IMG/VR virus record: IMGVR_UViG_3300031949_000054
Span: 1-51,926 of that record
Strand: one strand, 5' to 3'
Length of the DNA stretch: 51,926 nucleotides
DNA from: a virus
Shown: piece by piece, positions 14,602 to 35,411 of the stretch
Layout: every line of letters begins with the position of its first letter
How positions within the stretch are numbered: position 1 is the first letter of the stretch
Notes under the pieces: model-generated
Database searches by the model: none
What the model saw: only the letters and a program-made list of their open reading frames with translations
What the model was told of the DNA's origin: nothing
Made by a program: the position numbers and the translations under genes

Positions 14602-15075
14602 TCAGGTCGTCGCGGCGGGCGTGATGGTTGTGCTGCCGTTCAGGTACAGGCCCCACATCGCGGTGGTGAGTCCGATCAGCTGGATCACCGCCCCGGTCAG
14701 GGTCGAGCGGATCACGGTCGCGATGGTGCTGTCCGCGCTCGTCCTGAAGGTCTCTGCGTTCTTCGTCTTCAGGTACTGCGGGGTGTTCGCCGAGGAGAAC
14801 ACGATCGTCTTTTGCACGCCCGGGATCGGGGGCTCGATGATGTATACGCTCGAGGAGCCGGCGGAGGTGCCATTCAGGATGGACACGCCCCAGGCCGGGA
14901 CGTCGGTGCCGGTCGACTCGCCGGTGGTCACGCCCATTCGCAATCCTTCGGGGCCGGCGAGGAGGTCCGCGCCCTTGCTCACGGCGGTGGCGGCGCCGTG
15001 CTGGCCGCTTGAGAGCGGGATCAGGCCGAAGCGGCGCCCGTAGATGCCTGTCAGGATCTGGCTGTTGTAGGACAT
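14602..15075 (-). CDS. Hypothetical Ser/Thr/Gly-rich small protein
   Basis: 157-aa ORF with a GGAGAG ribosome-binding site. Charge-poor, beta-rich composition. Confidence 0.6.
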   Translation of the reverse strand: MSYNSQILTGIYGRRFGLIPLSSGQHGAATAVSKGADLLAGPEGLRMGVTTGESTGTDVPAWGVSILNGTSAGSSSVYIIEPPIPGVQKTIVFSSANTPQYLKTKNAETFRTSADSTIATVIRSTLTGAVIQLIGLTTAMWGLYLNGSTTITPAATT

Positions 15076-15161: not shown

Positions 15162-15551
15162 TTACTTGCGCCATTGCTCCATGATCACGTAGCCGCTCGT
15201 GAAGGCGGCAAACGAGAAGCCGGTCGAGTCGAGGGGCACCTGGAAGGTCTCTGGGTACGGCCCGATCGGGATGTTCACTCCGGAGCTCGCGTGGCTCGTG
15301 CCGCTCGCGGGGACCGCGGCGCTCGTGGACTTCATGTTGGCGCTGAAGAGGTACGTTCCGCCGGCGGTGGTCATCCCGCGCAAGCGCACGATGTGGGCGC
15401 CGGCTGCGCCCGCGTTCGCCATCGCGGTGGATCCTGTGGAGAGCCAATCGGAGGCCTGGGCGCTGGAGCCTCCGGTCATCAGGAACGTGGTGACCTGGTC
15501 CGGGACGAGCGGGTTGCCCTCGGTGGGGTGAAGGGTGCCGAATCGGTTCAT
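15162..15551 (-). CDS. Hypothetical Ser/Thr/Gly/Ala-rich small protein
   Basis: 129-aa ORF with composition similar to 14602..15075. Confidence 0.6.
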   Translation of the reverse strand: MNRFGTLHPTEGNPLVPDQVTTFLMTGGSSAQASDWLSTGSTAMANAGAAGAHIVRLRGMTTAGGTYLFSANMKSTSAAVPASGTSHASSGVNIPIGPYPETFQVPLDSTGFSFAAFTSGYVIMEQWRK

Positions 15552-15706: not shown

Positions 15707-16216
15707 TCAGTCGAGCGCGGTCTTCTTCGGCTTGGGGTGGGACTGCCGGCCGGCGAGCACCAGCGTGAAGGCGATGCGGCGCGCGATGTCCTTCACGTCC
15801 TGGACCTCGCCGTCCTCACCGACAACGTCCCCGGGCAGCTGCAGCTCGGCGGTTTCCTTCATCCCCAGACGCACCTTCGCCCAGAAGATCGCCGCCGCGG
15901 CGCTCGTGGCGGTGAGGCGCAGGAGGTTGCCGCCCGCCTGGATGTTCGCCTTCAGGATCCCGGTGTCGAGCTCGCGGCGGAAGTACTTTCGGAGCGTGAC
16001 CGGGGAGATCGGCCGGTGCGTCTTGGGGTTAAGGATGATGAGGACCTGTCTGTCCTCGGGGATCCCCAGGCCCGCCATCGCGGTCACCATGTTCGACTGC
16101 TCGGTGGAGGGCTTGAAGCCTCCGCCCGGTGGTCGCCCGGCGCGGCGCTTACCGTTTATCTTTGCTTGCGGTGCGGCGCTTGGCGATGACGTCGAAGCTC
16201 GCTTTTTCCTTGGCAT
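15707..16216 (-). CDS. Putative terminase small subunit
   Basis: 169-aa ORF. It has a basic N-terminus with AGRPPGG, an HTH-like MAGLGIPEDRQ..SPVTLRKYFRREL, and ..AAAAIFWAKVRLGMKE, all typical of small terminases. Confidence 0.55.
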   Translation of the reverse strand: MPRKKRASTSSPSAAPQAKINGKRRAGRPPGGGFKPSTEQSNMVTAMAGLGIPEDRQVLIILNPKTHRPISPVTLRKYFRRELDTGILKANIQAGGNLLRLTATSAAAAIFWAKVRLGMKETAELQLPGDVVGEDGEVQDVKDIARRIAFTLVLAGRQSHPKPKKTALD

Positions 16217-17642
16217 GGGTGGCGGTGCCCTTGGTGGCGTCCTGCCAGCGGCGCACGATCACGTCGGCGTACAGGGGGTCCAACTCGATCGCGTAGCAGG
16301 CGCGCCCGAGCTGTTCGGCCGCCATCAGGGTACTCCCGGAGCCGGCGAAGATGTCGAGTACGATCTCGCCCTCGAGGCTTGAGTTGGCGATCGCGCGGCG
16401 CGCAAGCTCAACAGGTTTCTGGTTGGGATGCAGGGTATTGTCCTTCCCGTAGCCGTTGTCGCGGCTCACCTCCCACAGGTCCTGGGCGCCGCCGCCGGCC
16501 TCGAGCAGAAGCGCTTGGTCTGGGGCCAGGTGTACGTGCCGGATCTTGCGGCCTTTGGGCTGGGTGCTGGTTACGTGGATCTCGCCTTCCTTGGTCGTGA
16601 TCGTCACTCCCGCGCCGATCGTCGTACGAAGGCCTGCGGCGGGGCCATGGGCGCTTACCCGCCACACGGTGGACTGATCCCTCCCTCCGTGCCAGGCGGC
16701 GCGCACGCCTTGCCTGGCAGCGTAGAAGCAGGGCTCATGGGCCCATCGGTAGTCGGCCCACCCCAGCACGATCTGGGGTTTCGCCCAGATGATGTAGGAG
16801 AGCTCCACTAAGCCGGTGTCGCGGAGGGCGGCGCTGTAGTCGTCCCGCGTTGCGCTCGCATGCCACACGTACCAGCCGGCGTCATCGGTGGTGTGCGGGA
16901 GCGCGGCGGCGAAGGCTTTCCGGAGGAGGTCCGCGAGTTGGCCGCGGCGCAGGTCGTCGCCCCGTATCATCTCGAAGTCCCCGCTCCTTGCGACATAGGA
17001 GACGCCGTAGGGCGGGTCGGTGAACACCATGTTCGCCCGACGTCCTAACGTCAGTGCCTCGAGCACGGTCTTCTTGGTTGCGTCCCCGTAGATCAGGCGG
17101 TGCGCGCCCATCAGCCAGATGTCCCCGGGCTGGGAGATCGCCTTTCGCTGCAGCGCTGGGGTTGCGGGCTCCTCCGGGTCCTGGGTCCGGGGTTCCAGGG
17201 CAAAGGCGATCTCGGGGAGGTTAAAGCCGGTCAGCTCGAGATCGAACCCCATGTCCTTCAGGGCCGAGAACTCCGCGGCGAGCAGGTCCTGGTCCCATCC
17301 GGCGTCTTCTGCTGCTCGGTTGTCGGCGAGCAGGTAGGCGCGCTTCTGGGCCGTCGAGAGGCCTGTGAGCTCGATCACGGGTACGCGCTGCATCCCGAGT
17401 TGCTTCGCCGCCTGGAGCCTGCCGTGGCCCGCCAGGATGCCGTTCTTGCCGTCGACCAGGATCGGGTTGGTCCACCCGTGCGCGCGGATCAGTTTGACGA
17501 GCTTGTCGATCTGCGCCGGGGTGTGAGTCCTGGGGTTCTTTGGGTCGGGCTTCAGGTTGCCGACATAGCGGTACTCGATCTTCAGCTGGCCGCCGTGGGC
17601 CTGCTTTTTTATAGCCGACACGTAACCGCCTCCCTGAACCAC
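16149..17642 (-). CDS. ParB-like nuclease domain fused to a beta-class DNA (N6-adenine/N4-cytosine) methyltransferase
   Basis: 497-aa ORF. ParB N-terminal motif (NPRTHTPAQIDKLVKLIRAHGWTNPILVD..GHGRLQAA), motif IV FTDPPYG, and C-terminal motif I LDIFAGSGST. Confidence 0.85.
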   Translation of the reverse strand: MVQGGGYVSAIKKQAHGGQLKIEYRYVGNLKPDPKNPRTHTPAQIDKLVKLIRAHGWTNPILVDGKNGILAGHGRLQAAKQLGMQRVPVIELTGLSTAQKRAYLLADNRAAEDAGWDQDLLAAEFSALKDMGFDLELTGFNLPEIAFALEPRTQDPEEPATPALQRKAISQPGDIWLMGAHRLIYGDATKKTVLEALTLGRRANMVFTDPPYGVSYVARSGDFEMIRGDDLRRGQLADLLRKAFAAALPHTTDDAGWYVWHASATRDDYSAALRDTGLVELSYIIWAKPQIVLGWADYRWAHEPCFYAARQGVRAAWHGGRDQSTVWRVSAHGPAAGLRTTIGAGVTITTKEGEIHVTSTQPKGRKIRHVHLAPDQALLLEAGGGAQDLWEVSRDNGYGKDNTLHPNQKPVELARRAIANSSLEGEIVLDIFAGSGSTLMAAEQLGRACYAIELDPLYADVIVRRWQDATKGTATHAKEKASFDVIAKRRTASKDKR

Positions 17643-17915: not shown

Positions 17916-18521
17916 TCATTTCTCCTTCGGTGAGGGAGGGAGCGCGGCACCGTATCGGGCTGGGGTAGCCCCGATGTCCGGTTGAGTGATTGTTACTAGA
18001 CCATCTCGTACCAAACCTTTGAGGGCGCTTCGCACTGGAGTAACCGGGATTCCGGTTGCGTAAGAAATGTCCCGTATCGTGCTGTGTTCGTTCAGCGCCT
18101 CAAGAACTTTTTGCACACGAGCAGAGCGCGTTCGTTTCTGGATTCCTACACGTGGATCAACTTTCGGCCAGGGGAGCAGTTTCTCAACGTCGCCACGGCC
18201 TGCCGCCACATCCAAAGCATCGGATACGTCATCGCTCGTCTCGAAGATGCCGAACATATCTGCCATGCAGCCGATGACTAGGTAGAGTGCAGCGCAACGC
18301 TCCTGCCATGTCCCAATCGTTTCTGGGGCCGTGTGCTCAAACTCAGCGGCATCAGCCTTAACCGGCTGCCCCGCCTCTGCGTGATCCGATAGGGCGCGAA
18401 GGGCTGCAAGAATTGCGTGCTGATCCTCGCTGCCAAGTTCGGTTGATTGGCCGTCTTCATATTGCAGAAACAGAATGCCGCTACCATCGATCTGTTCTAT
18501 TAGTCTCGTCAACTCGCTCAT
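17916..18521 (-). CDS. Hypothetical protein with a C-terminal winged-helix-like domain (low-GC insert)
   Basis: I chose the start at MSELTRL (ATG 18521), which forms an ATGA overlap with the synthase stop. The C-terminus ..VQKVLEALNEHSTIRDISYATGIPVTPVRSALKGLVRDGLV looks MarR/wHTH-like. Confidence 0.6.
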   Translation of the reverse strand: MSELTRLIEQIDGSGILFLQYEDGQSTELGSEDQHAILAALRALSDHAEAGQPVKADAAEFEHTAPETIGTWQERCAALYLVIGCMADMFGIFETSDDVSDALDVAAGRGDVEKLLPWPKVDPRVGIQKRTRSARVQKVLEALNEHSTIRDISYATGIPVTPVRSALKGLVRDGLVTITQPDIGATPARYGAALPPSPKEK

Positions 18522-19546
18522 GGCCTTCCTTTCCTCACGAGTTCCCACGTTAGCGGTTCGCCAGCCCTCACCGCCCGGTATACGCGCATCCCCATGACCA
18601 GAGGCTTGTTCTTCGGCTCCATGCCGTCCCCCGGGCGTAGCGCCCGGACGTTGTGCTCGGTCAGCGGGTCGCCCTCGGCCATGTCGTAGGCCACATGCAG
18701 GGTGCGGCGCAGAGCGAGCATCGGGCGTTCGGCTTCGCTCGGGCCGTAGCTCTCGAATCCGACAGCGTCGATCGCATCGTGCACGGCTTGCACCAGGGTC
18801 TCCATGCCGAGGGGATCAAGCGAGAAGCTCTTGTCCGGGCCGAGCGTCGTAAACTCCCCCATGTGCTTCTCGATCATGTCGGCGCCCATGATCGCGGCGG
18901 CTACAGCGGCGCCTGATCCGGGCGTGTGGTCGGAGTATCCAATTTTGCAGTCGAAATGCTGGCGCATGTTCGCCATCGTGGCGAGATTCACCTCGGCCGC
19001 TGTGGCCGGGTAGACGCTCGAGCACTTGAGCAGCGTGAGGTTGCCCTGCGTTCCGCCGGCGTGGCGATAGGCCTGGACCGCATCGTCGATCTCGGCAAGG
19101 GTGGCCATGCCGGTCGAGATGATGATCGGCTTACCGGTGAGGGTGACGCGGGTGATCAGTTCGAGGTCGAGGATCTCAAAGGAGGCGATCTTGTAGATCG
19201 GGCATCCCAGCCGCTCGAGGAAATCCACGGCTGCGGGTTCGAATGGGGTGCTGAACACAGGGATGCCGACCTTTTCGCCCTCCTTGAAGATCTGCTCATG
19301 CCAGCTCCACGGAAGCGCGCAGCGGTTGTACAGGTCCCAGAGATTCTCCCCCTTCCATGGTCCCTCTGTGAGGGTGTGCTGCACGCTCGGGTGGACCATG
19401 CTCGTGGGCTCGTAGGTCTGCAGTTTGACAGCGTCGCAGCCGGCGCGCTTGGCCGCGCGCACGATCTCCAGGGCGCGTTCCATGTGCTGGCAGTGATTCG
19501 CGCCCATCTCCGCGACAATGAACGGGTACCGCGAGGCGCGCTTCAT
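18518..19546 (-). CDS. pseI: Nonulosonic acid synthase of the NeuB/PseI/LegI family (pseudaminic acid synthase favoured by context)
   Basis: Start trimmed to MKRASRYPFIVAEMGANHCQ (ATG 19546). TIM-barrel NeuB motifs are present, plus a C-terminal SAF-like ..RALRPGDGMEP..G.RVYRAVRAGEPLTWE. Confidence 0.85.
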   Translation of the reverse strand: MKRASRYPFIVAEMGANHCQHMERALEIVRAAKRAGCDAVKLQTYEPTSMVHPSVQHTLTEGPWKGENLWDLYNRCALPWSWHEQIFKEGEKVGIPVFSTPFEPAAVDFLERLGCPIYKIASFEILDLELITRVTLTGKPIIISTGMATLAEIDDAVQAYRHAGGTQGNLTLLKCSSVYPATAAEVNLATMANMRQHFDCKIGYSDHTPGSGAAVAAAIMGADMIEKHMGEFTTLGPDKSFSLDPLGMETLVQAVHDAIDAVGFESYGPSEAERPMLALRRTLHVAYDMAEGDPLTEHNVRALRPGDGMEPKNKPLVMGMRVYRAVRAGEPLTWELVRKGRP

Positions 19547-19760
19547 GACCAAAGGCCGGCACCCGGACCCATAAGCGGGCAGGGTATCCGGGCGCCGGTT
19601 TTCTCTGGCACTACGCTGAATGGGGCTCGGCCACGAGAGCAAGGGGAGTTACCCGCAATTTCCTTCGCGCGGCTCTCTCTCGCAAGAACGGCCCGCGCCC
19701 CATGACTGGCCACGTGCAGATTGCACACGCTCGGCCCCTCGGTGTATTCCTTTTCGATCC

Positions 19761-20294
19761 TCATTGCCGCCCCAGGAGTTCAAGAGTCCGGGCCGCGTCC
19801 TCGAGGGTCGCGGTACTGAAATCGCCACTCGCGGCGGTGCGCCTGAGTTCGGCCGCGAGCGTCGGGATGTTGCGCTTGGCGACCTGGATCGTGCGCGCGA
19901 GTTCACCCGCCTGGAAGTCCTGCTCGTTGTTCTCGATCGGCTTCACGACGTGCTTGGTGCCCTGCGCGACGAGGCTCACGATCACGAAGGGTCGCGAGGG
20001 TTCGGCTGGGCTCGCCGGTACCGCGCGGCGGGTCCCCACGGCCGGGATGCCCGGGGTGGCGGGTCTGCCCTCCGGGCGGTAGACCATCGCCGCTGGGGTC
20101 ACCTTCTGGTAGGCCATGCACTGGTCAAACGCACTCAGGTCCTCCTCTCGAATCAGCACGGTCATCTCGGGGTTCTGATGGCGGGCCTTCCAGAGCAGGA
20201 GCTGCAGCACCCTGTTGGGGTCGGCCGCTGCGAAGGCGTCGAGGACGTCGACGGGCGGCGGCGTGGCTTTCGGTTTTGCTTTCGCTTTCGTCAT
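19761..20294 (-). CDS. Hypothetical protein
   Basis: 177-aa ORF. Its ATG overlaps the TGA of the GNAT gene (ATGA). Confidence 0.6.
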   Translation of the reverse strand: MTKAKAKPKATPPPVDVLDAFAAADPNRVLQLLLWKARHQNPEMTVLIREEDLSAFDQCMAYQKVTPAAMVYRPEGRPATPGIPAVGTRRAVPASPAEPSRPFVIVSLVAQGTKHVVKPIENNEQDFQAGELARTIQVAKRNIPTLAAELRRTAASGDFSTATLEDAARTLELLGRQ

Positions 20295-20752
20295 GGTCTT
20301 TCTCCTGGTGGCAGCTGGTAGGTGTGCTGAATAACGCGAGCTCCCAGCTTCAAAAAGAGCGCGTGCGAGCGGGTGTTCCCTGGGGCTACGTTCGCGAGCA
20401 GCGGTCCTGGGTGCCTCTCTCGCAGGAGAGTAACCGCCCGGAAGGCGTAGCCCTTGCGCTGGTGGGTGGCAAAGATCGCGACCGCTACCTCGTTCGCGCG
20501 GGTGAGCGCGACCGAGCCGACCCGTTCCAGTCTCTGAAGCTCGAAGAAGGCTGCTTCGTATGTTTCCGGCCTGTCCTCGATCAGGTACCAGGCTTTGTAG
20601 GGGCGGGAGGCGACGAATGCCTTGTGGGCCTCGTAGCTTGGCATCTGCCGGTGTGAGATGTTCGCCTCGGGTGGGCGCTCCTGCAGCAGCTCGTAAAGGA
20701 TCCGCCCGGCTAAGGATGGACCCACGTCGTAGACGTCTGTCAGTCTCAGCAA
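20291..20752 (-). CDS. GNAT-family N-acetyltransferase, PseH-like
   Basis: I chose the TTG start at 20752, which lies 6 nt after AAGGAG. LLRLTDV..ILYELLQERPPEANISHRQMPSYEAHKAFV..YKAWYLIE resembles the PseH-type N-terminus. The upstream part of the track ORF 20291..21034 is Arg-rich noise. Confidence 0.6.
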   Translation of the reverse strand: MLRLTDVYDVGPSLAGRILYELLQERPPEANISHRQMPSYEAHKAFVASRPYKAWYLIEDRPETYEAAFFELQRLERVGSVALTRANEVAVAIFATHQRKGYAFRAVTLLRERHPGPLLANVAPGNTRSHALFLKLGARVIQHTYQLPPGERP

Positions 20753-20934
20753 TTCGCGCTCCTTTTCCACGGGCCTGCTATCTGCCAGCACGGGCTGCAG
20801 GCCCAGATGACGCCGCGGCCGTAGCAGGCGGGTTGTCCACAGGCTCCGCATGGCCTGGGGATAACTTTCCCGTCCGGGGTGAAGCCGCCCATGTTGATCT
20901 CCTTCGCGTTGGCCGTGCCCGGGTGGTGCATCAT
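20746..20934 (-). CDS. Small Cys-rich (zinc-ribbon-like) protein
   Basis: 62 codons from MMHHPG.. (ATG 20934, ATGA overlap with the HisF-like stop). Contains CGACGQPACYG..WACSPCW. Confidence 0.4.
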   Translation of the reverse strand: MMHHPGTANAKEINMGGFTPDGKVIPRPCGACGQPACYGRGVIWACSPCWQIAGPWKRSANC

Positions 20935-21851
20935 TGGTGTCGCCCGATGAGCCCGAGAATCTCCTCCTCGGATACCTCTCCGCGCCGGTCCCACAGCATG
21001 TCGAAGACCTCCCTCGGTACCGGGGGGGCACCATGCTTCTGGGCTTCCTCCCAGACCATTTCCTTCAGGCGAGGGTCGCTCAGATCGCCGGTGATTTCCA
21101 TGGGTTCTGGGAGCCTGGTCTCGATCCCGTGTTCGGCGAGATAACGTGCGGCTTCCAGCGGGGTCTGATCGGTGAACTGGAACATGGCGCCAGCGGCTAC
21201 TGCGTCTGCGCCGGCCTCAATCGCCTCGAGCAGATGCTGGTACGTGCCGGCGCCGCCGTGAGCGATCACCGGGATGCTTACATAGTTGCTCACTGCTCGG
21301 ATTATCGGCAAATCGTAGCCTTCCATCGTGCCCTCGCGGTCGATCGATGTCAGCAGAATTTCGCCTGCGCCGTGTTGTTCCAAATACATAGCCCAACGGA
21401 CCGGCCTGCGGCGGCGCGCATATTCAGGGACGCCCTTGAACACGACAAAACCACCACGCACATCGGCGGCGGCGACAAGCGCTTGGCTGCCGACTCTATC
21501 CGCAGCCTCGCGTAAAAGATTAGGGACATGAAGAGTTGCAGCACCGATCACCACCTTGTCGGCGCCGGCGCGGAGCAGCGCTCGCACGTCGTCGACTGAC
21601 CGGATTCCTCCGCCGACAGCGAGCGGCATGAAACAGACTTCAGCGAGCTCGGCGACCAGATCCAGGTCCGGACCACGGCCTTCTGCGGTGGCGGCGACGT
21701 CCAGCAGCATGAGCTCGTCCACGCCGCGCGTCTGGTGGATGCGCACCGCTTGGGCGGCAAGGCCGACCGTTCTCCAGGAATCAAAGCGCGCGCCCTTCAC
21801 CATCTGCCGCCCTCGGCACAGGATCGTCGGGATGATGCGCTTGGAGAGCAT
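20931..21851 (-). CDS. HisF/WbuZ-like imidazole-glycerol-phosphate-synthase cyclase-subunit homolog (glycosyl amidation partner) with a ~55-aa C-terminal extension
   Basis: Start trimmed to MLSKRIIPTILCRG (ATG 21851). HisF motifs ..DELMLLDV.. and ..PLAVGGGIRSVDDVRALLRAGADKVVIG.. are present. Confidence 0.85.
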   Translation of the reverse strand: MLSKRIIPTILCRGRQMVKGARFDSWRTVGLAAQAVRIHQTRGVDELMLLDVAATAEGRGPDLDLVAELAEVCFMPLAVGGGIRSVDDVRALLRAGADKVVIGAATLHVPNLLREAADRVGSQALVAAADVRGGFVVFKGVPEYARRRRPVRWAMYLEQHGAGEILLTSIDREGTMEGYDLPIIRAVSNYVSIPVIAHGGAGTYQHLLEAIEAGADAVAAGAMFQFTDQTPLEAARYLAEHGIETRLPEPMEITGDLSDPRLKEMVWEEAQKHGAPPVPREVFDMLWDRRGEVSEEEILGLIGRHQ

Positions 21852-22093
21852 CAGCCTCTGCCTTGCGCTTGGATCACTTTCAGGATGCAGTCCGAAAGCG
21901 CCCAGGCTGGGCGCTTTCCCCACCCACGCTCTAGGCTTGGATGGTGCTGCGCTTCGTAATAATCTTGGTGAAATGGCCACCACCTTCTACGAATGCGGAA
22001 TAGCCGCATGTTGGCGTACTTCACGATCCTGTTCGCGTCGCCCTCGCGAGCCTCGTCACGCAGGTCAAGTTCCCGGCGGGTCTCGCGCGTCAC
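21851..22093 (-). CDS. Hypothetical Arg/Trp-rich 80-aa protein occupying the position where a HisH/WbuY glutaminase would be expected
   Basis: The GTG start forms a GTGA overlap with the amidotransferase stop. The stop forms a TGATG overlap with the HisF-like start. No glutaminase motif is present. Confidence 0.4.
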   Translation of the reverse strand: MTRETRRELDLRDEAREGDANRIVKYANMRLFRIRRRWWPFHQDYYEAQHHPSLERGWGKRPAWALSDCILKVIQAQGRG

Positions 22094-23196
22094 GCGAACT
22101 CCTTCAAAATGGGGCGCTTGTCGTAGGGGTGTGCGAAAAGATCCTTGTTCGTGAAGCGGGCGAGGGTATCCATCAGTTCGCCCTCGGACATCCGGATCTG
22201 CTCGAGCACCCTGGCGAGCGGGACGCCGGCATAGACATCTGGGAAGAGCCCGTCGATCTCGCGCACGTTCCGCATGGCCTCATCCCGTGAGAGCTTATTG
22301 TGGCGGATGTCCACTGAGAGTTGCGCGGCGGCCCGCCCGTAGCCGTACTTGCGGTACATCGCATGGTCGTGCAGGCCCGTCATCGCGTTGTCAAGGTTCT
22401 CCGCCGGCCACCAGTTCGCCGGGGTTGGGAGGTGCTGGCGCATGCCGGCGTCGGCCGCGGCGCGGGCGTTGCGCTCGGCGTCCCAGCGGAAGTACTGTCC
22501 CATGAAGTGGGCCTCGATCCCCGCCGCGGCGACAAAGCGCTCGTCAAGGGGGCGGTAAGGCTGCAGGTCGCGCTCGGAGAGGCTTCGTTGTCCGACCAGG
22601 TCCTGTGCTCGCAGGCCGAGAAAGCCGCCAAACTCCGTGACCCAGCGCCGCGTCATCGCGCGCGCGTCGGTCGTGCCCTGGGGGCCTCCGTAGGCTTCTT
22701 GCGGGTTTTCGCCGTACAAAACCAGTGGAATAATCATGTTTCGCGCCACCGCCCAGGGGGTGTTGAAGATGGTGGCGTGCTCGGGCCAGCTGATATCGCC
22801 CACGAGCTCCAGGCCCAGGCGGTTTAGCTTCGAGCGCACCTTCCGGTTCGGGGTGACCTCGATCGTGTCGGCGTAGCGGGCGAGGTTGTCGATGTTGAAG
22901 CGCCCGATCGGCGTCAGCATGCACGTGGAGGCAGTTACCACCAGGGGCCGGTAGCCAAGCTCGATCACCTTCAGCACCTGCCAGTGGCTGTCCTTGCCGC
23001 CTGAGCTCGCCACGATGCAGTCGTAGCCGCTCGCTGGGTTGTGCTTCTCGCGCATCAGGGTGTGGAACTCCTCCTCGCGCGCGGCCCAGTCGACGCGGCC
23101 CCTATTGGCGAAAGAGCGGCAGGCCGAGCACACCCCGTCCTCGAATGGCGTGTCGGGGCGGGCCGTAGGTATCACACAATTGCGGCAGCGGTTCAT
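22090..23196 (-). CDS. N-acetyl sugar amidotransferase (PseA/WbuX/WbpG type, PP-loop ATPase)
   Basis: 368-aa ORF. N-terminal CRNC..CSAC zinc-ribbon-like pairs, followed by the PP-loop IVASSGGKDS. Confidence 0.85.
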   Translation of the reverse strand: MNRCRNCVIPTARPDTPFEDGVCSACRSFANRGRVDWAAREEEFHTLMREKHNPASGYDCIVASSGGKDSHWQVLKVIELGYRPLVVTASTCMLTPIGRFNIDNLARYADTIEVTPNRKVRSKLNRLGLELVGDISWPEHATIFNTPWAVARNMIIPLVLYGENPQEAYGGPQGTTDARAMTRRWVTEFGGFLGLRAQDLVGQRSLSERDLQPYRPLDERFVAAAGIEAHFMGQYFRWDAERNARAAADAGMRQHLPTPANWWPAENLDNAMTGLHDHAMYRKYGYGRAAAQLSVDIRHNKLSRDEAMRNVREIDGLFPDVYAGVPLARVLEQIRMSEGELMDTLARFTNKDLFAHPYDKRPILKEFA

Positions 23197-23278
23197 TGGC
23201 TAATCCGATGGAATTCCTTTATCCCGTGCGAGAGTCTCACCCTGCGCCAGAACTCACCAGCGGCGTGTTTGCCTGCCA

Positions 23279-23845
23279 TCATGGCTTCTCCATCAACCAG
23301 TACGTGCAGCGGTCAAAGCCGTTCGCCTCGCCGGTGTGCAGGATCGTCAGCCCGAGCGCCTCATACAGCTTGCCGTACGGGCGCTTCCACAGGCGGTTCT
23401 CGTAGCCGCGGTACTCGATCATCTGCTCAACATCGGAGGCGTATTCGATCGCGACGATCCATCGTGAGCTCGCGTCGACGATCTCCCCCATAAACGCGGG
23501 AAGGTTCTCCGGGGCTACGTGGATGAGGACGCCCGCGGTGAACACGAGGTCGTACCGCCCTGGGGGCTCATCAAGCCTGCCGGTTGAAACGCCGACCAGG
23601 CCGGCGGCACGCGCCTGCTCTGCCGCCCTCGGGTTGATGTCGCACCCGTGGAGCATCGCCTTTGAAATCTCCGCGATCGCCGAGAGGTTCCAGCCCGCGT
23701 TGCACCCGACCTCGTAGACGCTCCGGGCTTCGGTGAAGCGCATGATGTCGGTCCAGAACGGGATGCGCGCGCGCCAGTCCACCCGGTTGCGCGCGGTGTA
23801 GGCGTTCCCGAACTCCCCCGCCCAGAACTCCTCCTGGGGGATCAT
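23279..23845 (-). CDS. SAM-dependent methyltransferase resembling the pseudaminic-acid-biosynthesis-associated methylase
   Basis: 188-aa ORF. Motifs seen: EEFWAGEFGNAYTARN, EVGCNAGWNL (motif I), GVLIHVAP, and IEY..IEYRGYENRLWKRPYG. Confidence 0.8.
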   Translation of the reverse strand: MIPQEEFWAGEFGNAYTARNRVDWRARIPFWTDIMRFTEARSVYEVGCNAGWNLSAIAEISKAMLHGCDINPRAAEQARAAGLVGVSTGRLDEPPGRYDLVFTAGVLIHVAPENLPAFMGEIVDASSRWIVAIEYASDVEQMIEYRGYENRLWKRPYGKLYEALGLTILHTGEANGFDRCTYWLMEKP

Positions 23846-24414
23846 CGCATTCCTTTCTCAGAACGCCGCCGCGCCTGTTGCGAGACGGACATCTTCGCTC
23901 TTGCTGAGGCTGGGAGCCTAGTACCAAGTTTAGCTGCGGCCATGCGCTTCCGGGCCTCCACGGAGAAGGTGCGCCCTTTCTGGGCCTTGGACATCCGCTC
24001 ACGAGATTCAGGCGTGACGACCCGACGCTTGAGAGCCAATTTGATCCGTTCTCTGTGCACATCAGACAGCCGTCGACCGCGTAGGGATTCCGATATCTTC
24101 GCCGCGACTGTCGGCAAGAATGGTACTGGCTTCTTTCCTCCTGGGCTTATGTTGTAGCCACGTGGGTCTAGTGTGCAAAACACAGCGATGGCGCGCGTTT
24201 CTGTCTCATCGAGATCGACTGGCTGTACGACGGCAAGCACCGTAAGGCGCGGCACCCCGTACTTTCGCCAAGCCATATAGACGGCCCCTTTCGTGCTTGC
24301 GTCGCTGGCCTTGTGGTGACGACGAAACCGTTGAAGCGCTGTCCCGACAGTCGCGCCGATATATGACTTTCCCGATGCAAAGTCTAGGCGGTACAGTTCA
24401 CCCATTTTCCCCAT
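23842..24414 (-). CDS. GIY-YIG homing endonuclease with NUMOD3-like repeats
   Basis: 190-aa ORF. LYRL..KSYIGAT (GIY-YIG), RFRRH, ETETRAI and GYNISPGG. Three C-terminal S/ARxRMSxAQKG-type repeats. GC looks lower than in the neighbouring genes. Confidence 0.85.
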   Translation of the reverse strand: MGKMGELYRLDFASGKSYIGATVGTALQRFRRHHKASDASTKGAVYMAWRKYGVPRLTVLAVVQPVDLDETETRAIAVFCTLDPRGYNISPGGKKPVPFLPTVAAKISESLRGRRLSDVHRERIKLALKRRVVTPESRERMSKAQKGRTFSVEARKRMAAAKLGTRLPASARAKMSVSQQARRRSEKGMR

Positions 24415-25120
24415 CCCTAAGCTTTATCGCAGCGTAGAGCAGTTCCGCCATCTCCCAATCGCTTACGGTGTTGATGTCCTGGCAGCGGTAGCGTGGGATC
24501 GGCACGCCGAGCGAGGCGGGACTGAAGATCGGCGCATCGCGCACGAACGACGCCGTTCTCCCCCAGTACCACTGCCCGGCGTCGTGGTAGTAGGTCGGGA
24601 GATCCTGGCTTCTTGCGTTCGCGATGGCCTCGGTAAGCGAGCCGGTGACGACCGCCCCATCTGGGCCGAGCTCGAAGGCCCGCTGCAGTTCGGCGTCGTA
24701 CGTGGTGACGGAGAAGGCGTAGACCGGGTCCCAGTCGGTGCGGGTGAGCGCCCGGAAGCCTGCCTGCAGGTCCGCGGGGGTCATCATCGGGGCGGTCGCG
24801 TAGATGCAGCAGGCGAGGTCGTAGGCGAAGTGCGGGCCGGCTGGCTTGTGGATCGCGAGCAGCGCCTCCCGCATCACCGCCTGGGTGCCGGTGTGGTCAT
24901 CGGCGAGCTCCGCGGGCCGACGGTGGACCGAGGCGCCGTAGCGCGCCGCGACCTCGGCGATCTCATCGGAGTCTGTCGAGACGAGGATGAGATCGAACAG
25001 GGCGCTCGCTTTCGCCGCCTCGATCGAGTAGGCGATGATCGGCCGACCGTGGAAGGGCTGGATGTTCTTGCCGGGGATGCGCTTGCTACCGCCCCGGGCG
25101 GGGATGATTGCGATTTTCAT
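24398..25120 (-). CDS. pseF: CMP-nonulosonate synthetase (PseF/NeuA-type cytidylyltransferase)
   Basis: 240-aa ORF. MKIAIIPARGGSKRIPGKNI and ..RRPAELADDHTGT.., as in acylneuraminate/pseudaminate cytidylyltransferases. Confidence 0.85.
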   Translation of the reverse strand: MKIAIIPARGGSKRIPGKNIQPFHGRPIIAYSIEAAKASALFDLILVSTDSDEIAEVAARYGASVHRRPAELADDHTGTQAVMREALLAIHKPAGPHFAYDLACCIYATAPMMTPADLQAGFRALTRTDWDPVYAFSVTTYDAELQRAFELGPDGAVVTGSLTEAIANARSQDLPTYYHDAGQWYWGRTASFVRDAPIFSPASLGVPIPRYRCQDINTVSDWEMAELLYAAIKLRDGENG

Positions 25121-25751
25121 GGTGGTCCTCTATCAGCTTGACGTCGTCGAAGCCATAGACCGTGTTGCTTTTCAGCAGGTGGTACTGGTGAAAGATGTCA
25201 CAGTCTTCGGTGGTTGTCACTCGGATTCCGCGGCCCTCGGCCACGCCGCACCAGTACTCGAGGCACGCCCTGGCGCTGATGGGCTCGGCGCGCCAGCTGT
25301 CCAGGGCAAGGCCGATCCCGTGTAAGGCGATCTCTGCCGCGCCCTCCAGGATTGCGTATGCGACCAGCATGTCGAAACTGCCGGCGTGGTAGCGGCCTCC
25401 GCGTGGGGTGAGGCGGAGGAGGTCATTCACCGGGAATAGGACCTCGTTCTCGAGGAGCCCGTGCCAGGTGTCGACCACGTACACCGGGATCTTGGGGTTC
25501 GCCTTGGAGAAGGCGGTGTCCCAGACGATGTATTCGTAGCAGTCTCGGTTCAGGTGCGCGAAGCGGTGCAGGTTGAACATCCTCGCCCAGCGGATGGGCT
25601 TCCAGGGCGGCTGGCGCGCGTCTGGGCGGATGGCGTTCAGGCCCCAGATCTCCCATCCCGGGCTCTCGTGGCGGCCGGTGAAGTACTGCTCCTTCGCGGC
25701 GCCGCCGATGATGGCGACCTTCAGGGCGGGGTTCTTCTTTCTTCCGAACAT
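25086..25751 (-). CDS. Paralog B of the Rossmann-like putative nonulosonate transferase (hypothesis)
   Basis: Real start taken at MFGRKKNPALKVAIIGGAAKE (ATG 25751). The upstream 142 codons of the track ORF are Arg/Pro noise. WEIWGLN..FNLHRF..GSFDMLVAYAILEGAAEIALHGIGLA aligns with 13482..14552. Confidence 0.55.
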   Translation of the reverse strand: MFGRKKNPALKVAIIGGAAKEQYFTGRHESPGWEIWGLNAIRPDARQPPWKPIRWARMFNLHRFAHLNRDCYEYIVWDTAFSKANPKIPVYVVDTWHGLLENEVLFPVNDLLRLTPRGGRYHAGSFDMLVAYAILEGAAEIALHGIGLALDSWRAEPISARACLEYWCGVAEGRGIRVTTTEDCDIFHQYHLLKSNTVYGFDDVKLIEDHHENRNHPRPGR

Positions 25752-25762
25752 CGTCTTTCTCC

Positions 25763-26149
25763 CTATCTCGAGGCGAGCTCTTGCACCGCCTGCAGCACCT
25801 GGTCGACCACGTGGGCGGCCTGGTAGGCGGGTTTCTTGCGGTCGCGCTCCATGCTGGTAAGCATCAGGGTCACGCGGGTGATCAGCTTGTCGCGCATCCT
25901 GGTGGCGGCGTAGGCCATGCGCTCTGGCTTGGTGATCAGGCGCTGGACGCGGTCGGCCTCGGCGGTCATCGCGTCGGCTACGTTCCGGGCACCGACCGGG
26001 TCGAAGGCGACCCAGAGCTTGGGCTCGGGGAAGCGCAGGATCACCTTGCCGCGCTCCGAGAGCACGCCGACCTCCGTCGGCCCGCTCCCTCCGGCGCCGA
26101 TCAGTGGGGGCGGGGTGTCGTCGCGGGGTTCGCTTCCGTTGATTCCCAT
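25763..26149 (-). CDS. Hypothetical protein
   Basis: 128-aa ORF. No motif recognised. Confidence 0.55.
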   Translation of the reverse strand: MGINGSEPRDDTPPPLIGAGGSGPTEVGVLSERGKVILRFPEPKLWVAFDPVGARNVADAMTAEADRVQRLITKPERMAYAATRMRDKLITRVTLMLTSMERDRKKPAYQAAHVVDQVLQAVQELASR

Positions 26150-26409
26150 TTGAGCTCTCCGGTGATCTTGATGCCAAGGGCGCGGGCGCAGTTGATGATG
26201 TTCGTCGCGGTCGCGAGCGCGATCTCTGGGGTCCAGCTGATGTTGGTGATCGGGACGGAGAACGCCATCGTGACCTGGCCCAGCTTCTGGTCGGCGTAGA
26301 CCGCGGACTGCAGGTTTAACCGCTGGGGCGCGGGGGCCTCTTTCGCCTTGGCTGCGGCACGTTGCGCCGCGCGGGCAGCCAGCTGCTCGTGTAGGTCTTT
26401 CACGCTCAT
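26101..26409 (-). CDS. Hypothetical protein
   Basis: Start taken at MSVKDLHEQ (ATG 26409, with GGAGA 7 nt upstream). Confidence 0.5.
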   Translation of the reverse strand: MSVKDLHEQLAARAAQRAAAKAKEAPAPQRLNLQSAVYADQKLGQVTMAFSVPITNISWTPEIALATATNIINCARALGIKITGELKWESTEANPATTPRPH

Positions 26410-26527
26410 CGGAAGATCTCCATTTTGGAAAGGTCGGGGTAGTCGTCGTTTGGCAGGTCCGGGATGATATCCGGGAGGAGCGCCAGGCGCACCAGGCTGC
26501 GACCCGGCGGTCTCGGTGGCCATGTGC

Positions 26528-27745
26528 TCACGTTTCAATCACCGGACGGTAATCCCGCCAGTCTTTGTAGAGGAGATTACGCCCTCCTGGGGTTGTCCTC
26601 CAAGTAGAGGCGACTGCTGCTTGCGGATTGCGACCAGCCTCGCCCGCGTACTGCTCTGGGTTGATGGGCAGCCAGTATTTCCGGAAAGTGCCGTCTGGTT
26701 CCGGGGATCGGTTGGTGACGCAGATCCTAGCGATCGGCCGGCCAACGTTCAGGTTTTCCATGTAGAGGTCCCCGAAGAGAGGATCGCTTGCCACGGGCTT
26801 CATACCGCTGTCGAGGATGTACCGGGCCTCGCCGTAGCGCTCGATCATGATCCGGCGGACCTCGGCGTTCTTCTCGTCTGTCATATGCTTGAGCGTGATC
26901 CACTCCGGCTTGACAACCACGAAGGCTGGCACGAGAACTCCGTGCCAGAAGTAGAGGTTTTCGATGTCGGACTCCAGGGCTGCGGATCGGTCGTTGTGCA
27001 GCCTTCGGCCGTTCGGCGTTTGTTCGACGTGGACCGTAGGCTTCGCGACCCAGTAGAGGGTGTCCTCGGTCCAGTGCAATATCCAAGCGCCAGCAAGGAA
27101 GGCCTCGAGTAGCGGGTCGGCCCAAGCCCTGACTTGCGGCGGGGGGGTTCCGAATGCCGTGGTGACGATCCAGGATAGGTCGAATCTCCACCAACCCCAG
27201 CCGTATGCCTGGATGCACCACGCCGCGAAGCGGTGAAGTGAAGTAAATGCGGCGCGGACGTCGCCGTCGGCGAGGGCGTCGCGGGCGGCGCGGGCGTCGC
27301 GGGCGTCGCGGGCGGCGAGGGCGTCGCGGGCGGCGCGGGCGGCGAGGGCGGCGAGGGCGTCGAGGGCGTCGCGGGCGTCGAGGGCGTCGCGGGCGTCGCG
27401 GGCGTCGAGGGCGTCGCGGGCGTCGCGGGCGGCGAGGGCGTCGCGGGCGGCGAGGGCGTCGAACTCGCGCGCGGCGAGGGCGGCGAGGGCGGCGAGGGCG
27501 TCGCGGGCGGCGAGGGCGGCGATTGATGGATAGGGTTTCACGATGTCATCGAGCACTTGGTTAACATATTTTTTGAGCGATGGCTCGGTTTCCAGGTCCC
27601 AGTCGATCGGAAGCCGCTTGATCGTCCGGTTTATGTTGAGCGCGCGAAGATAGGTCCCCAGGTGCTGCTCGACGAGGACAGCATCGAGCACACCCGGGTA
27701 ATCACACGCGGCGTCGTAGCGCTTCCGAAGTTCAGTCTGCGACAC
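26528..27745 (-). CDS. Repeat-containing protein: an Ala-rich (A-[L/R]-[A/D]) tripeptide array followed by a conserved bacterial-type domain of unknown function
   Basis: GTG start at 27745 overlaps the end of 27732..28073. The C-terminal ..GRRLHNDRSAALESDIENLYFWHGVLVP..EKNAEVRRIMIERYG.. matches a DUF I recall (possibly DUF6745), which is often preceded by ARD/AWD-type repeats. Confidence 0.65.
   Translation of the reverse strand: MSQTELRKRYDAACDYPGVLDAVLVEQHLGTYLRALNINRTIKRLPIDWDLETEPSLKKYVNQVLDDIVKPYPSIAALAARDALAALAALAAREFDALAARDALAARDARDALDARDARDALDARDALDALAALAARAARDALAARDARDARAARDALADGDVRAAFTSLHRFAAWCIQAYGWGWWRFDLSWIVTTAFGTPPPQVRAWADPLLEAFLAGAWILHWTEDTLYWVAKPTVHVEQTPNGRRLHNDRSAALESDIENLYFWHGVLVPAFVVVKPEWITLKHMTDEKNAEVRRIMIERYGEARYILDSGMKPVASDPLFGDLYMENLNVGRPIARICVTNRSPEPDGTFRKYWLPINPEQYAGEAGRNPQAAVASTWRTTPGGRNLLYKDWRDYRPVIET
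27269..27517. repeat. In-frame tandem array: 26 units of 9 bp (G[G/T]CG[A/C]GGGC on the plus strand) plus one 15-bp variant unit
   Basis: Parsed unit by unit: 21 units (27269-27457), then gtcgaactcgcgcgc (27458-27472), then 5 units (27473-27517). Seven of the nine positions are invariant in all units. Confidence 0.95.
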
Positions 27746-28073
27746 GGCGAACCTCCGGACCGAAGTCCTCGACCTGGAAGGCTTGGCGGTAGATGCCCTT
27801 ATCAAGGACGATCGCGGCGTGCTCCTCGTGTTTGAGTGTGACTCGCTCGAGCACCTGCAGGTAGCGCTCGGCGCCGGCGTCCCAGTAGCGGACCTTGTGC
27901 TGCTCCTTCTTCGGGACATCAATGCGGTGAGCGTGTCCGGTGACCTCGCCGTAGGCGAGGACGATGCCTCGGGCTTCCGGTTTGATTTCTTTTGCGCCCT
28001 CTGGGATGGTGGCGAGGGTGGTAAGTACGAGGGCGACGTCGCCCTGCCGATACGTCGTTGTGGCTCGTTTCAT
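27732..28073 (-). CDS. Conserved phage hypothetical protein (small beta-barrel type)
   Basis: 113-aa ORF. RQGDVALV..VLAYGEVTGHAHRI..LKHEEHAAIVL is a pattern I recall from many phage ORFs of unknown function. Confidence 0.65.
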   Translation of the reverse strand: MKRATTTYRQGDVALVLTTLATIPEGAKEIKPEARGIVLAYGEVTGHAHRIDVPKKEQHKVRYWDAGAERYLQVLERVTLKHEEHAAIVLDKGIYRQAFQVEDFGPEVRRVAD

Positions 28074-29565: not shown

Positions 29566-29595
29566 ATCCTACCGTCTGGTATTCCCGCTTGTCAA
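29566..29595 (-). promoter_or_regulatory. Putative leftward sigma70-type promoter
   Basis: On the minus strand: TTGACA (29595-29590), an 18-nt spacer, then TAGGAT (29571-29566). The -10 ends 7 nt before the ATG at 29558, so the mRNA may be leaderless or nearly so. Confidence 0.45.
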
Positions 29596-29603
29596 CAGAA
29601 AAC

Positions 29604-29633
29604 TTGACAGCGGCTTTCCGGCATGCCTATCAT
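29604..29633 (+). promoter_or_regulatory. Putative rightward sigma70-type promoter
   Basis: TTGACA (29604-29609), an 18-nt spacer, then TATCAT (29628-29633). Its -35 forms an inverted repeat with the leftward -35 (TTGTCAAcagaaaacTTGACA). Confidence 0.5.
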
Positions 29634-33547: not shown

Positions 33548-33811
33548 ATGACTACCGCCTATCCCCTGCAGTGGCCGCCCGGCTGGCCGCGCACGCCCTC
33601 GGATAAGCGGGAGCGCTCGCGCTTTGACACCAGTGTGTCGAAGGCGCTTGGCTTTCTCCACGAGGAGGTGCGGCGGCTCGGGGCGAAGTCCCTCGTCATC
33701 TCGAGCAACTATACCCTCGGGCCTGCTCCGGAGGATTCCGGGGTGTGTGCCTATTTCGAGTTGGGAATTATATACTTGACTCCCACAGCGGAATCAGTGG
33801 GTTATGAGTAG
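33548..33811 (+). pseudogene. 5' fragment of a J-domain protein gene, interrupted by the methyltransferase cassette
   Basis: MTTAYPLQWPPGWPRT..SGVCAYFE is followed by 16 element-encoded codons and then TAG. The frame matches the 3' fragment once the element and one TSD copy are removed. Confidence 0.7.
33763..33788. repeat. Left terminal inverted repeat GGGAATTATATACTTGACTCCCACAG
   Basis: Read directly. Its partner is at 34895-34920. Confidence 0.9.
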
Positions 33812-35268: not shown

Positions 35269-35411
35269 AGGATCCTACTCCGCGCTGGATGTGGCACCTG
35301 TGGGGCGTGGCCGGGGTGTTCGTCGCGCTCAACGGCAGATCGATTGTGCTCGGGGTCGTGCTCGTCGCGATCGCTGCCCTGGCGCTCGTGCTCAATGACT
35401 CCGATGGCTGA
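35265..35411 (+). CDS. Small two-helix membrane protein (48 aa)
   Basis: Below the ORF-track cutoff. GTG 35265 forms a GTGA overlap with the previous stop, and the stop overlaps the next ATG (ATGGCTGA). Translation: VKDPTPRWMWHLWGVAGVFVALNGRSIVLGVVLVAIAALALVLNDSDG. Confidence 0.35.
   Translation: MKDPTPRWMWHLWGVAGVFVALNGRSIVLGVVLVAIAALALVLNDSDG

Follow-up and report, generated by a model that had tools for sequence, protein, structure and literature searches.

The DNA analyzed here is the IMG/VR virus record IMGVR_UViG_3300031949_000054 (51,926 nt as presented; this whole stretch is called the window). Its minus strand carries a cassette of genes for the synthesis, activation and tailoring of a pseudaminic acid (Pse), a nonulosonic acid, together with two putative transferases of predicted sialyltransferase fold, orf221 and orf356. 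The window spans an entire phage genome, assembled as a circle of about 51.8 kb: bases 1-127 and 51800-51926 are identical, and since this exact 127-bp terminal overlap closes the contig, the absence of pseB, pseC, pseG, hisH or an integrase from the window is absence from the complete genome. PHROG profiles identified tail tubular proteins A and B, a portal/adaptor protein, a major head (capsid) protein and TerL, as well as fiber-like proteins; the phage is classed as a podovirus because of the tail tubular, portal, capsid and TerL matches. In its minus-strand unit, replication and recombination genes are followed by the sugar cassette, a gene for a ParB-methylase, a probable TerS gene, TerL and the structural genes.

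Genes of the pseudaminic acid cassette

The open reading frames (ORFs) were compared with curated NCBIfam models, each having its own cut-off, and alongside with Pfam, PHROG and PDB profiles. An earlier note on this DNA, made from the letters alone, had described seven minus-strand genes for the late and tailoring steps of a pseudaminic-type pathway, and all seven ORFs are present where it placed them (Table 1). Four of them, PseI, PseF, the WbuX/PseA-type amidotransferase and the Pse-associated methylase, score above the NCBIfam cut-offs, and their family identities are those assigned by curated profile comparison. With the competing NeuB model (NeuB_NnaB) the synthase reaches 267.8 bits for a cut-off of 399.65, and a neuraminic (Neu) or legionaminic (Leg) acid identity was rejected on the model scores; the PseF ORF gives at most 47 bits with the KdsB models. 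The amidotransferase translation shows two cysteine pairs (C4xxC7 and C23xxC26) and the PP-loop motif SSGGKDS. The methylase model, TIGR03587, is a hypothetical equivalog whose substrate is undefined even for the family; in this cassette the enzyme may methylate the tailored sugar.

The assignment is looser for two other members. The gene described as a HisF/WbuZ-like cyclase has WbuZ as its best match, but below the cut-off, as are the AglZ/HisF2 model (NF038364, 236 bits for 310) and genuine HisF (216.7 for 294.55). We regard the barrel as probably WbuZ-like and a partner of the amidotransferase, rather than as a certified member of the WbuZ or HisF2 family. The position that we take to be that of the catalytic Asp11, by comparison with HisF of T. 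maritima, reads Leu (RIIPTILCRG). Four observations led to the rejection of a genuine HisF: the higher WbuZ and HisF2 scores, the loss of the Asp11 position, the lack of any further his gene, and the adjoining WbuX-type gene. The pathway is of pseudaminic type, and neither a histidine-pathway HisF nor a generic methylase was recovered, WbuZ outscoring HisF and the methylase passing TIGR03587. The PseH-like acyltransferase is indeed a GNAT by weak generic Pfam matches, but neither it nor its six clade homologs (7 members) match the NCBIfam PseH model (TIGR03585); the PDB profile search returned generic GNATs, at E about 0.01 or worse, and no solved PseH. The label PseH, which profiles do not support, comes from the position of the gene. 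The GNAT of a more distant cassette (L019) matches PseH weakly (46.2 bits for a cut-off of 93.1).

As had been reported, no PseB, PseC, PseG or HisH is encoded in the complete genome, of which all ORFs of sufficient length for such a protein were scanned, nor does any scanned ORF contain the GATase domain of a HisH/WbuY partner. The described stitching of the genes by stop-start overlaps is true of part of the block: ATGA overlaps lie at 23842-23845 and 20291-20294 and a GTGA overlap at 22090-22093, and the junctions around PseF overlap by 17 nt and 35 nt (the latter between orf221 and the start of PseF), but at three junctions the genes stand apart, by 82 nt, 178 nt and 214 nt. The block also holds more than seven ORFs, with a GIY-YIG endonuclease, orf177, orf128 and two doubtful small ORFs; the endonuclease, orf177, orf128 and a relic of pseC had been missed in the note. 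All the remaining cassette genes are full-length and in frame, with a GC content at third codon positions (GC3) of 0.72-0.88.

Table 1. Features of the cassette, of the transferase genes and of their surroundings. Positions are those of the window unless a related locus (L followed by a number) is named; aa, amino acids.
Feature	Position	Strand	Evidence and remarks
PseI, pseudaminic acid synthase	18518-19546	-	TIGR03586 365.5 bits (cut-off 340.25); NeuB and SAF Pfam domains
PseF, CMP-pseudaminic acid synthetase (cytidylyltransferase)	24398-25120	-	TIGR03584 273.3 bits (cut-off 205.7); PF02348
WbuX/PseA/WbpG-type PP-loop N-acetyl-sugar amidotransferase (acetamido to acetamidino)	22090-23196	-	TIGR03573 244.1 bits (cut-off 203.2)
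Pse-associated S-adenosylmethionine (SAM) methyltransferase	23279-23845	-	TIGR03587 126.8 bits (cut-off 112.05); class I methyltransferase Pfam domains
WbuZ/HisF2-like (beta/alpha)8 barrel	20931-21851	-	Best match TIGR03572 (WbuZ) 242.3 bits (cut-off 299.7)
Divergent GNAT acyltransferase, PseH-like by position only	20291-20752	-	Acetyltransf_1 21.1 bits (cut-off 20.7); Acetyltransf_3 22.7 bits
orf221, putative CMP-nonulosonate (pseudaminyl) transferase	25086-25751	-	Fold match of AlphaFold model to sialyltransferases
orf356, second sialyltransferase-fold paralog	13482-14552	-	Coiled-coil and basic C-terminal extension; immediately upstream of TerL
Ser/Thr-rich protein of 157 aa, candidate acceptor	14602-15075	-	25.5% Ser+Thr, 2nd of 61; GC3 0.92
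Ser/Thr-rich protein of 129 aa, candidate acceptor	15162-15551	-	23.3% Ser+Thr, 4th of 61; GC3 0.90
3'-terminal relic of a PseC-like (DegT-family) aminotransferase gene	26405-26516	-	92-108 nt
GIY-YIG homing endonuclease between PseF and methylase	23842-24414	-	PHROG 314 E 1e-15, PHROG 7168 E 2e-13; NUMOD3, TIGR01453
orf177, conserved protein with no function assigned, between GNAT and PseI	19761-20294	-	45-80% identity, same position, in L001-L006, L010, L020
orf128, conserved cassette protein, always just upstream of the transferase	25763-26149	-	38-100% identity in L001-L006, L009, L010, L020
Small conserved ORF	26101-26409	-	28-32% identity, same position, in L002-L004; no family match
ORF of 80 aa bridging WbuX and WbuZ	21851-22093	-	GTGA/TGATG overlaps; doubtful gene
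Protein starting M.L(I/V)KLTG.PHPD, in relatives	L002 3084-3533; L003 10634-11125; L004 3577-4056; L006 3041-3496; L010 14377-14814; L020 14494-14982

A family of sialyltransferase-fold proteins

The last of the seven genes, orf221, had been called transferase-like. Its sequence matches nothing in Pfam, NCBIfam, PHROG or the PDB, though many metagenomic homologs exist, and it is by fold that the call can be made more precise. An AlphaFold (AF2) model built from 37 sequences (predicted local distance difference test, pLDDT, 84.7; predicted template modelling score, pTM, 0.81) matches CstII in a Foldseek search of the PDB (E 4e-5 to 5e-4, probability 1.0, TM-score about 0.5). The other top neighbours are Cst-I, the Pasteurella lipooligosaccharide sialyltransferase 9c08, and human ST6GALNAC2 and ST8SiaIII (GT29), so that they span three sialyltransferase families using sugars activated with cytidine monophosphate (CMP). 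A fold search of BFVD returned uncharacterised phage proteins only. The gene arrangement agrees in the related loci: immediately downstream of the orf221-type gene, a cytidylyltransferase gene overlaps or abuts it in the window and in L001-L007, L009, L010 and L020.

The paralog of orf221, orf356, lies next to TerL. Profile comparison by hhalign joins orf356 to the orf221 family (probability 99.6, E 1e-23), and the nine best PDB matches of its own profile are all sialyltransferases, with weak scores (E 0.09); the match covers CstII 119-164 (RITSG...LSGIDFY...SSYAF). None of the 43 transferase family members (37 + 6) has a Pfam match at E up to 10, and identity to CstII is about 12%. The family-invariant residues His62, His122, Ser125, Asp127 and Glu156 are candidate catalytic residues only.

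A profile search of 1.84 billion cluster representatives gave 3,739 relatives at E <=1e-3, of which 1,645 at E <=1e-10, and members were found only in phages and metagenomes. Motif-seeded scans of 185,579 representative bacterial species genomes did not recover the family; one weak, tail-only match concerned a contig of a Kiritimatiellia metagenome-assembled genome. The sole homolog in a GenBank phage is that of Microcystis phage Mvi-Yong1342-1 (L021, PP496355.1, 8902-9705), annotated "type 11 methyltransferase", probably wrongly. These results suggest that orf221 and orf356 represent a new, large and unannotated family, apparently restricted to phages, for which a transferase activity can be predicted from the modelled fold.

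Position of the transferases in head modules

The distribution of the family among phage genomes was considered next to genes of known function. In several unrelated lineages the glycosyltransferase (GT) gene of this family lies within the head or packaging module. The order is GT-TerL in the window and in L013-L017, where the orf356-type gene is conserved next to TerL; GT-TerS-TerL-portal in the Microcystis phage; and TerL-GT-portal in L019, whose whole Pse cassette is inserted between portal and MuF. In L011 and L012 the order is portal-MuF-protease-GT-capsid, and more genes of orf356 type follow those of the capsid. L007 shows MuF-GT-cytidylyltransferase-epimerase-NeuB and, further on, scaffold-major capsid protein-147 aa-GT. 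The MuF-like minor head protein of L007 (8295-10004), beside the orf221-type transferase, has a seemingly intein-like insertion, in which Hint-domain-like motifs were read by eye and which holds a separate 269-aa ORF on the opposite strand.

Two small proteins encoded upstream of orf356 are rich in Ser and Thr compared with the median of the window proteome (10.7% Ser+Thr). The 157-aa protein, just upstream of orf356, is conserved in L003, L005, L010, L013 and L020 and has no Pfam or PHROG match; the 129-aa protein has homologs in L003, L005, L013 and L020 and no PHROG match. The small ORFs just upstream of the orf356-type GT contain 23-27% Ser+Thr, with a GC3 of 0.90-0.96 in this clade. For the corresponding small protein of L007 there is a match to a head-associated PHROG, and the same is true of a similar protein encoded at another place in the head module of L012. 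From gene position and composition, these Ser/Thr-rich proteins would be the leading candidates as acceptors of the sugar. The remaining two of the four proteins richest in Ser and Thr are a Gp80-like podophage fiber protein (43530-43970, minus strand, 30.8% Ser+Thr) and a protein of 128 aa (6389-6775, minus strand, 24.2%) whose gene directly follows that of the major capsid protein (6840-7784); both are additional candidate targets of glycosylation.

Relatives of the cassette and loss of pseB and pseC

In six IMG/VR contigs (L001-L006) the cassette is intact and its genes keep the order orf128, orf221, PseF, methylase, WbuX, WbuZ, GNAT, orf177 and PseI, followed by the ParB-methylase or by packaging genes, with protein identities of 33-94%. 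WbuX is the most conserved gene (67-90%), and the methylase (33-70%), PseF (38-74%) and GNAT (35-76%) are mosaic among relatives. The PseI proteins of the phage clade are 52-94% identical to one another and at most about 50% identical to cellular proteins among the matches listed, of which the named ones are all called pseudaminic acid synthase. This distinctness from the cellular PseI listed argues for a long residence in phages and not for a recent pickup.

All relatives with sequence upstream of orf128 (L002-L006) carry two more genes there. One encodes a PseB-like dehydratase of 296-341 aa (TIGR03589, about 270 bits, E 1e-80, under the cut-off of 407.75) and the other a short PseC-like protein of 212-243 aa (TIGR03588, a weak 33-40 bits for a cut-off of 423.5) with an SFHxxK motif. 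By blastn, window 27298-26527 corresponds to L002 73-844 (91%), up to the stop of the DUF6745 gene, and homology resumes between window 26496-26405 and L002 2386-2477 (79%), i.e. the last 92 nt of the pseC-like gene. The window lacks 1,541 bp relative to L002, where the relatives keep the pseB-like and most of the pseC-like gene. What is left translates to ...LPDIIPDLPNDDYPDLSKMEIFR-stop; it matches the C-terminus of the DegT-like protein of L009 by tblastn (56% over 36 aa, E 4e-8), and both end in ...FR-stop. The alignments indicate that the late-only pathway of the window is a secondary loss and not an ancestral architecture, because L002-L006 keep both genes at the site of the deletion. The picture of a late-only pathway dependent on its host holds for the window, where the early steps are absent, but as a derived state.

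Completeness varies in other relatives as well. L010 and L020 are without PseI, L020 retaining a PseB-like gene; L019, with an SPP1-type portal, has PseB (405.7 bits), the weakly PseH-like GNAT, PseF, methylase, WbuX and WbuZ. Neither PseG nor HisH was found in the window or in the examined parts of the related loci. This variation fits hosts that make Pse and complement the missing steps. Six related loci also contain, at varying positions of the cassette, a protein of about 150-163 aa with a characteristic start (Table 1, last line) that is absent from the window.

Such a set is unusual in phages, as the earlier note had stated. None of PseI, PseF, WbuX and the methylase has a PHROG family; among 50,697 GenBank phage records PseI has 0 close matches and 3 weak NeuB-like ones (26-28% identity), PseF has 3 weak matches, and megablast of the cassette region against GenBank phages gave none. 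Searches of the literature led to phage proteins acting on host Pse, by binding, degradation or tailoring, and to no phage-encoded cassette for its synthesis and activation.

Other genes of the cassette and features of the genome

The GIY-YIG endonuclease gene has a GC3 of 0.60, against 0.86-0.88 in its neighbours, and is absent from all related loci; it is an inserted selfish element outside the pathway. In relatives, HNH endonucleases occupy other cassette positions (L001 3330-4058, L010 11634-12269), and these different endonucleases at different sites make the cassette a recurrent target of selfish endonucleases. Only 14 homologs of orf177 were found among 5.8 billion proteins, none with a Pfam domain; orf177 itself has no PDB, Pfam, NCBIfam or PHROG match, and its AF2 model is poor (pLDDT 58.7). 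Its position between GNAT and PseI suggested the idea of a PseG replacement, on which we do not rely. orf128 (GC3 0.91) has no Pfam or NCBIfam match. The small conserved ORF next to it was listed as 145 aa reaching 26538; judging from the 81-aa ORFs in L002 and L003, its true start is likely the ATG at 26409. The 80-aa ORF between WbuX and WbuZ has no family match, no homolog in related loci and a GC3 of 0.68. A 73-aa ORF at 19543-19764, which overlaps orf177 and PseI by ATGA, was rejected as a gene for its flat GC content over the three codon positions (0.62/0.61/0.65).

The genome has a GC content of 62-69%. Between the minus- and plus-strand blocks, 29566-29633 contains two divergent sigma-70-like promoter matches (10/12 and 11/12), which head the plus-strand block and the minus-strand unit of about 29.5 kb; this is likely the early control region. 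Intrinsic terminators are not enriched in the cassette (11, vs 9.2 in shuffled sequence). No integrase was found among the ORFs scanned, and no repressor module either. Two N6/N4 DNA methyltransferases and a DUF5131 (Gp37/Gp68-like) protein are encoded at 16149-17642 (minus strand), 33804-34907 and 35344-36255 (both plus strand), and probably serve anti-restriction; the methyltransferase of 16149-17642, directly downstream of PseI, is fused to a ParB-like N-terminal domain. Within the DUF6745 gene (26528-27922, minus strand), 27249-27518 is a tandem repeat of the 9-bp unit GCGTCGCGG (about 30 copies, 81-85% matches) that encodes an (A/D)ARDAL-type low-complexity stretch and whose opposite strand reads as an ORF of RRG repeats. 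The 2,255-aa ORF at 44588-51355 (minus strand) matches solely PHROGs of unknown function (9854, 9880, 18222); judging from its size it may be an internal virion or ejection protein, which is a guess.

These data do not name a host. No tRNA genes were found in the genome, and the scans of the 185,579 species genomes gave no prophage relative of either transferase beyond the weak Kiritimatiellia match; the cultured relatives are very distant (portal about 25% identical to that of HTVC010P-type pelagiphages, tail tubular protein B 22-27% identical across many hosts), and the closest of them infect many different hosts. The nearest cellular PseI proteins, among the matches listed, are scattered over phyla and give no pointer.

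Comparison with known systems

The bacterial route of Campylobacter and Helicobacter (PseB-PseC-PseH-PseG-PseI-PseF with PseA) shares with the phage cassette the PseI and PseF equivalogs, a PseA/WbuX-type amidotransferase and the Pse-associated methylase, and the window's relatives also carry PseB-like and PseC-like genes. The window differs in that its set is borne by a virulent-looking podovirus with pseB and pseC deleted, and pseG is absent from every relative examined. The PseC-like proteins of the phages have 212-243 aa, against about 380 aa in bacterial PseC, the phage GNAT has no PseH match, and the transferase is neither Maf, FlmG nor PseE. With the O-antigen systems WbuX/WbuY/WbuZ and WbpG/HisH2/HisF2 the cassette has in common a PP-loop amidotransferase and a HisF-like barrel; unlike them it has no HisH/WbuY, either in the window or in the examined parts of relatives, and its WbuZ lies under the cut-off. 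Their substrate is FucNAc or ManNAcA, whereas that of the phage enzymes is, from the gene context, presumably a nonulosonate.

For the transferases, GT42 enzymes (CstII/Cst-I) offer the predicted fold, a variant of GT-A, a TS...A.A...G.D...Y segment seen in the orf356 type, and the association with CMP-sugar synthetases, but no membership of that sequence family is detectable. In mycobacteriophages, the capsid genes have phage GT genes as neighbours, and the virion carries sugar on its capsid and tail proteins; a further study takes up the concept (PMC11256854). Those systems differ in employing ordinary GT-A/GT-B enzymes and nucleotide sugars of the host, with no sugar biosynthesis by the phage and no nonulosonic acid. 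The Maf flagellin transferases are a precedent for Ser/Thr O-linked nonulosonates (PMC11339370). In Acinetobacter baumannii, epaAB and O-acetyltransferases are likewise phage-borne enzymes that alter Pse chemistry (PMC12053666, PMC6586298). There, however, one or two tailoring genes are carried by temperate phages and act on the host capsule, whereas the window has genes for synthesis, activation and amidino and methyl tailoring as well as for dedicated transferases, in a phage in which no lysogeny genes were found.

Proposed function and alternatives

We propose that the module makes a CMP-activated Pse with acetamidino and methyl groups and transfers it, most likely to proteins of the virion; we give this reading about an even chance (roughly 0.5). 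The host would supply an early intermediate, UDP-4-amino-4,6-dideoxy-L-AltNAc or a later one, because pseB and pseC are gone from the window and pseG occurs in none of the relatives examined. The GNAT of the phage may N-acylate this intermediate, PseI would condense the free hexose with phosphoenolpyruvate to give pseudaminic acid, and the WbuX-type amidotransferase with the WbuZ barrel would turn an N-acetyl into an acetamidino group; as no HisH is encoded, the ammonia would be free or come from a host glutaminase. The methylase could then add a methyl group, plausibly forming an N-methylacetimidoyl as in Leg5AmNMe7Ac, and PseF would make the CMP-sugar. Transfer would be the role of orf221, translationally coupled to PseF, and of orf356, beside TerL, and the result would be a particle decorated with tailored pseudaminic acid. 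What this scheme says of the enzymology, the order of steps, the site of methylation and the origin of the ammonia and the PseG activity is proposed. The chemistry has natural analogues, since acetamidino and N-methylacetimidoyl nonulosonates occur, for instance Pse5Am7Ac and Leg5AmNMe7Ac on Campylobacter flagellins (PMC3958885), and Maf enzymes are known to O-glycosylate Ser/Thr with nonulosonic acids (PMC11339370).

The gene neighbourhoods of several phage lineages favour virion glycosylation over rewriting of the host surface. Virion proteins are the most likely acceptors of the sugar, a choice that we hold tentatively, at somewhat less than an even chance. A little more tentative is the extension to the whole family, according to which a widespread group of phage sialyltransferase-fold enzymes would O-glycosylate head or surface proteins with phage-made tailored Pse or related nonulosonic acids, the adjoining small Ser/Thr-rich proteins being the candidate acceptors. 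Several points weigh against the proposal. GT42-type enzymes classically act on lipooligosaccharide sugars and not on proteins; no equivalent of the catalytic His188 of CstII was identified in the transferase family, and the Asp154 position is lost in the orf221 type (HGIGL vs SGIDF). In the window the cassette follows replication genes, with the structural genes about 10 kb further downstream, and positions adjacent to terminase genes are also common hot spots for cargo genes. The choice of acceptor derives only from where the genes lie and what the proteins are composed of. Finally no gene accounts for the functions of PseG and HisH, a PseH identity cannot be demonstrated for the GNAT, and the loss of pseB and pseC could signal a decaying module.

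The same CMP-activated, tailored Pse might instead be added to O-antigen, capsule, flagellin or pilin of the host, so as to mask receptors, exclude superinfection or keep progeny from adsorbing to infected cells and debris. CstII-like enzymes, designated by the fold match, normally sialylate surface oligosaccharides, the window cassette follows replication and recombination genes and not capsid genes, and reliance on the host for the early steps implies a host already displaying Pse. Tailoring of surface Pse by phages or prophages is moreover documented in Acinetobacter for epaAB (PMC12053666) and O-acetyltransferases (PMC6586298). We hold this to be rather unlikely, though it is a rival to be taken seriously and the next most likely reading, since it leaves unexplained the TerL-GT-portal and protease-GT-capsid placements of other lineages and the neighbouring Ser/Thr-rich proteins; its form as a classic lysogenic conversion is itself unlikely, because no integrase or repressor was found and the motif-seeded scans of the 185,579 representative genomes gave no prophage copies. 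A purely metabolic role, in which the phage only raises or redirects CMP-Pse for host transferases and orf221 and orf356 are possibly nucleotide-sugar hydrolases replacing PseG, appears improbable. Sialyltransferases such as CstII do also hydrolyse their donor, PseG is missing from every cassette examined, and the varying gene content of relatives (L010 and L020 without PseI) is expected if hosts complement the pathway. But genes of orf221 or orf356 type also occur in phages without nearby nonulosonate genes (L011, the Microcystis phage) and beside NeuC-type hydrolysing epimerases (L012), which make a substitute for PseG unnecessary, and two paralogs per genome and a place in head modules are hard to explain by such a role.

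Whether the module still works at all was also considered, as the cassette might be a remnant drifting without function since the deletion of pseB and pseC. The 1.54-kb deletion with its pseC relic, the invasion by a homing endonuclease and the high divergence of methylase, PseF and GNAT among relatives would agree with decay, which we judge very improbable: the remaining genes are all full-length and in frame, their GC3 resembles that of well-expressed phage genes, four still score above curated family cut-offs, and relatives with other subsets (L010, L020) also keep their genes intact. The least credible idea is that the activated sugar is put on bases of the phage DNA against restriction. 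Phages are known to glycosylate DNA bases (PMC13326640, PMC5889632), and the flanking genes include DNA-related ones (the ParB-methylase, a RuvC-like and a DnaD-like gene). The scanned ORFs include no base-hydroxymethylase and no known DNA glycosyltransferase, and the head-module placement in other lineages points to proteins. We know of no sialyltransferase-fold enzyme acting on DNA and of no nonulosonic acid carried by it.

Implications

Part of the main novelty lies outside the seven-gene block first described, in a sialyltransferase-fold family that goes together with nonulosonate activation genes as well as with head modules. Glycosylation encoded by viruses is known in giant viruses and in the capsids of mycobacteriophages, and prophages modify the Pse of their hosts. 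To our knowledge, a tailed-phage lineage with its own nonulosonic acid synthase, activation, amidino and methyl tailoring and dedicated transferases has apparently not been described. The missing early steps lead to the prediction that the host makes pseudaminic acid; it would be expected to have a high GC content and to carry pseB, pseC and pseG. Whatever their target, orf221 and orf356 define a large putative glycosyltransferase family that could be added to annotation resources, and the compact phage PseI, PseF, WbuX/WbuZ and methylase are candidate tools for the chemoenzymatic synthesis of CMP-Pse derivatives. If the sugar ends on the virion, it would be the first sialic-acid-like coat synthesised by a phage; should the reading hold for the whole family, many environmental tailed phages would wear such a self-made coat. 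A coat of this kind would have a bearing on adsorption, stability, evasion of recognition by hosts or predators and the immunogenicity of therapeutic phages.

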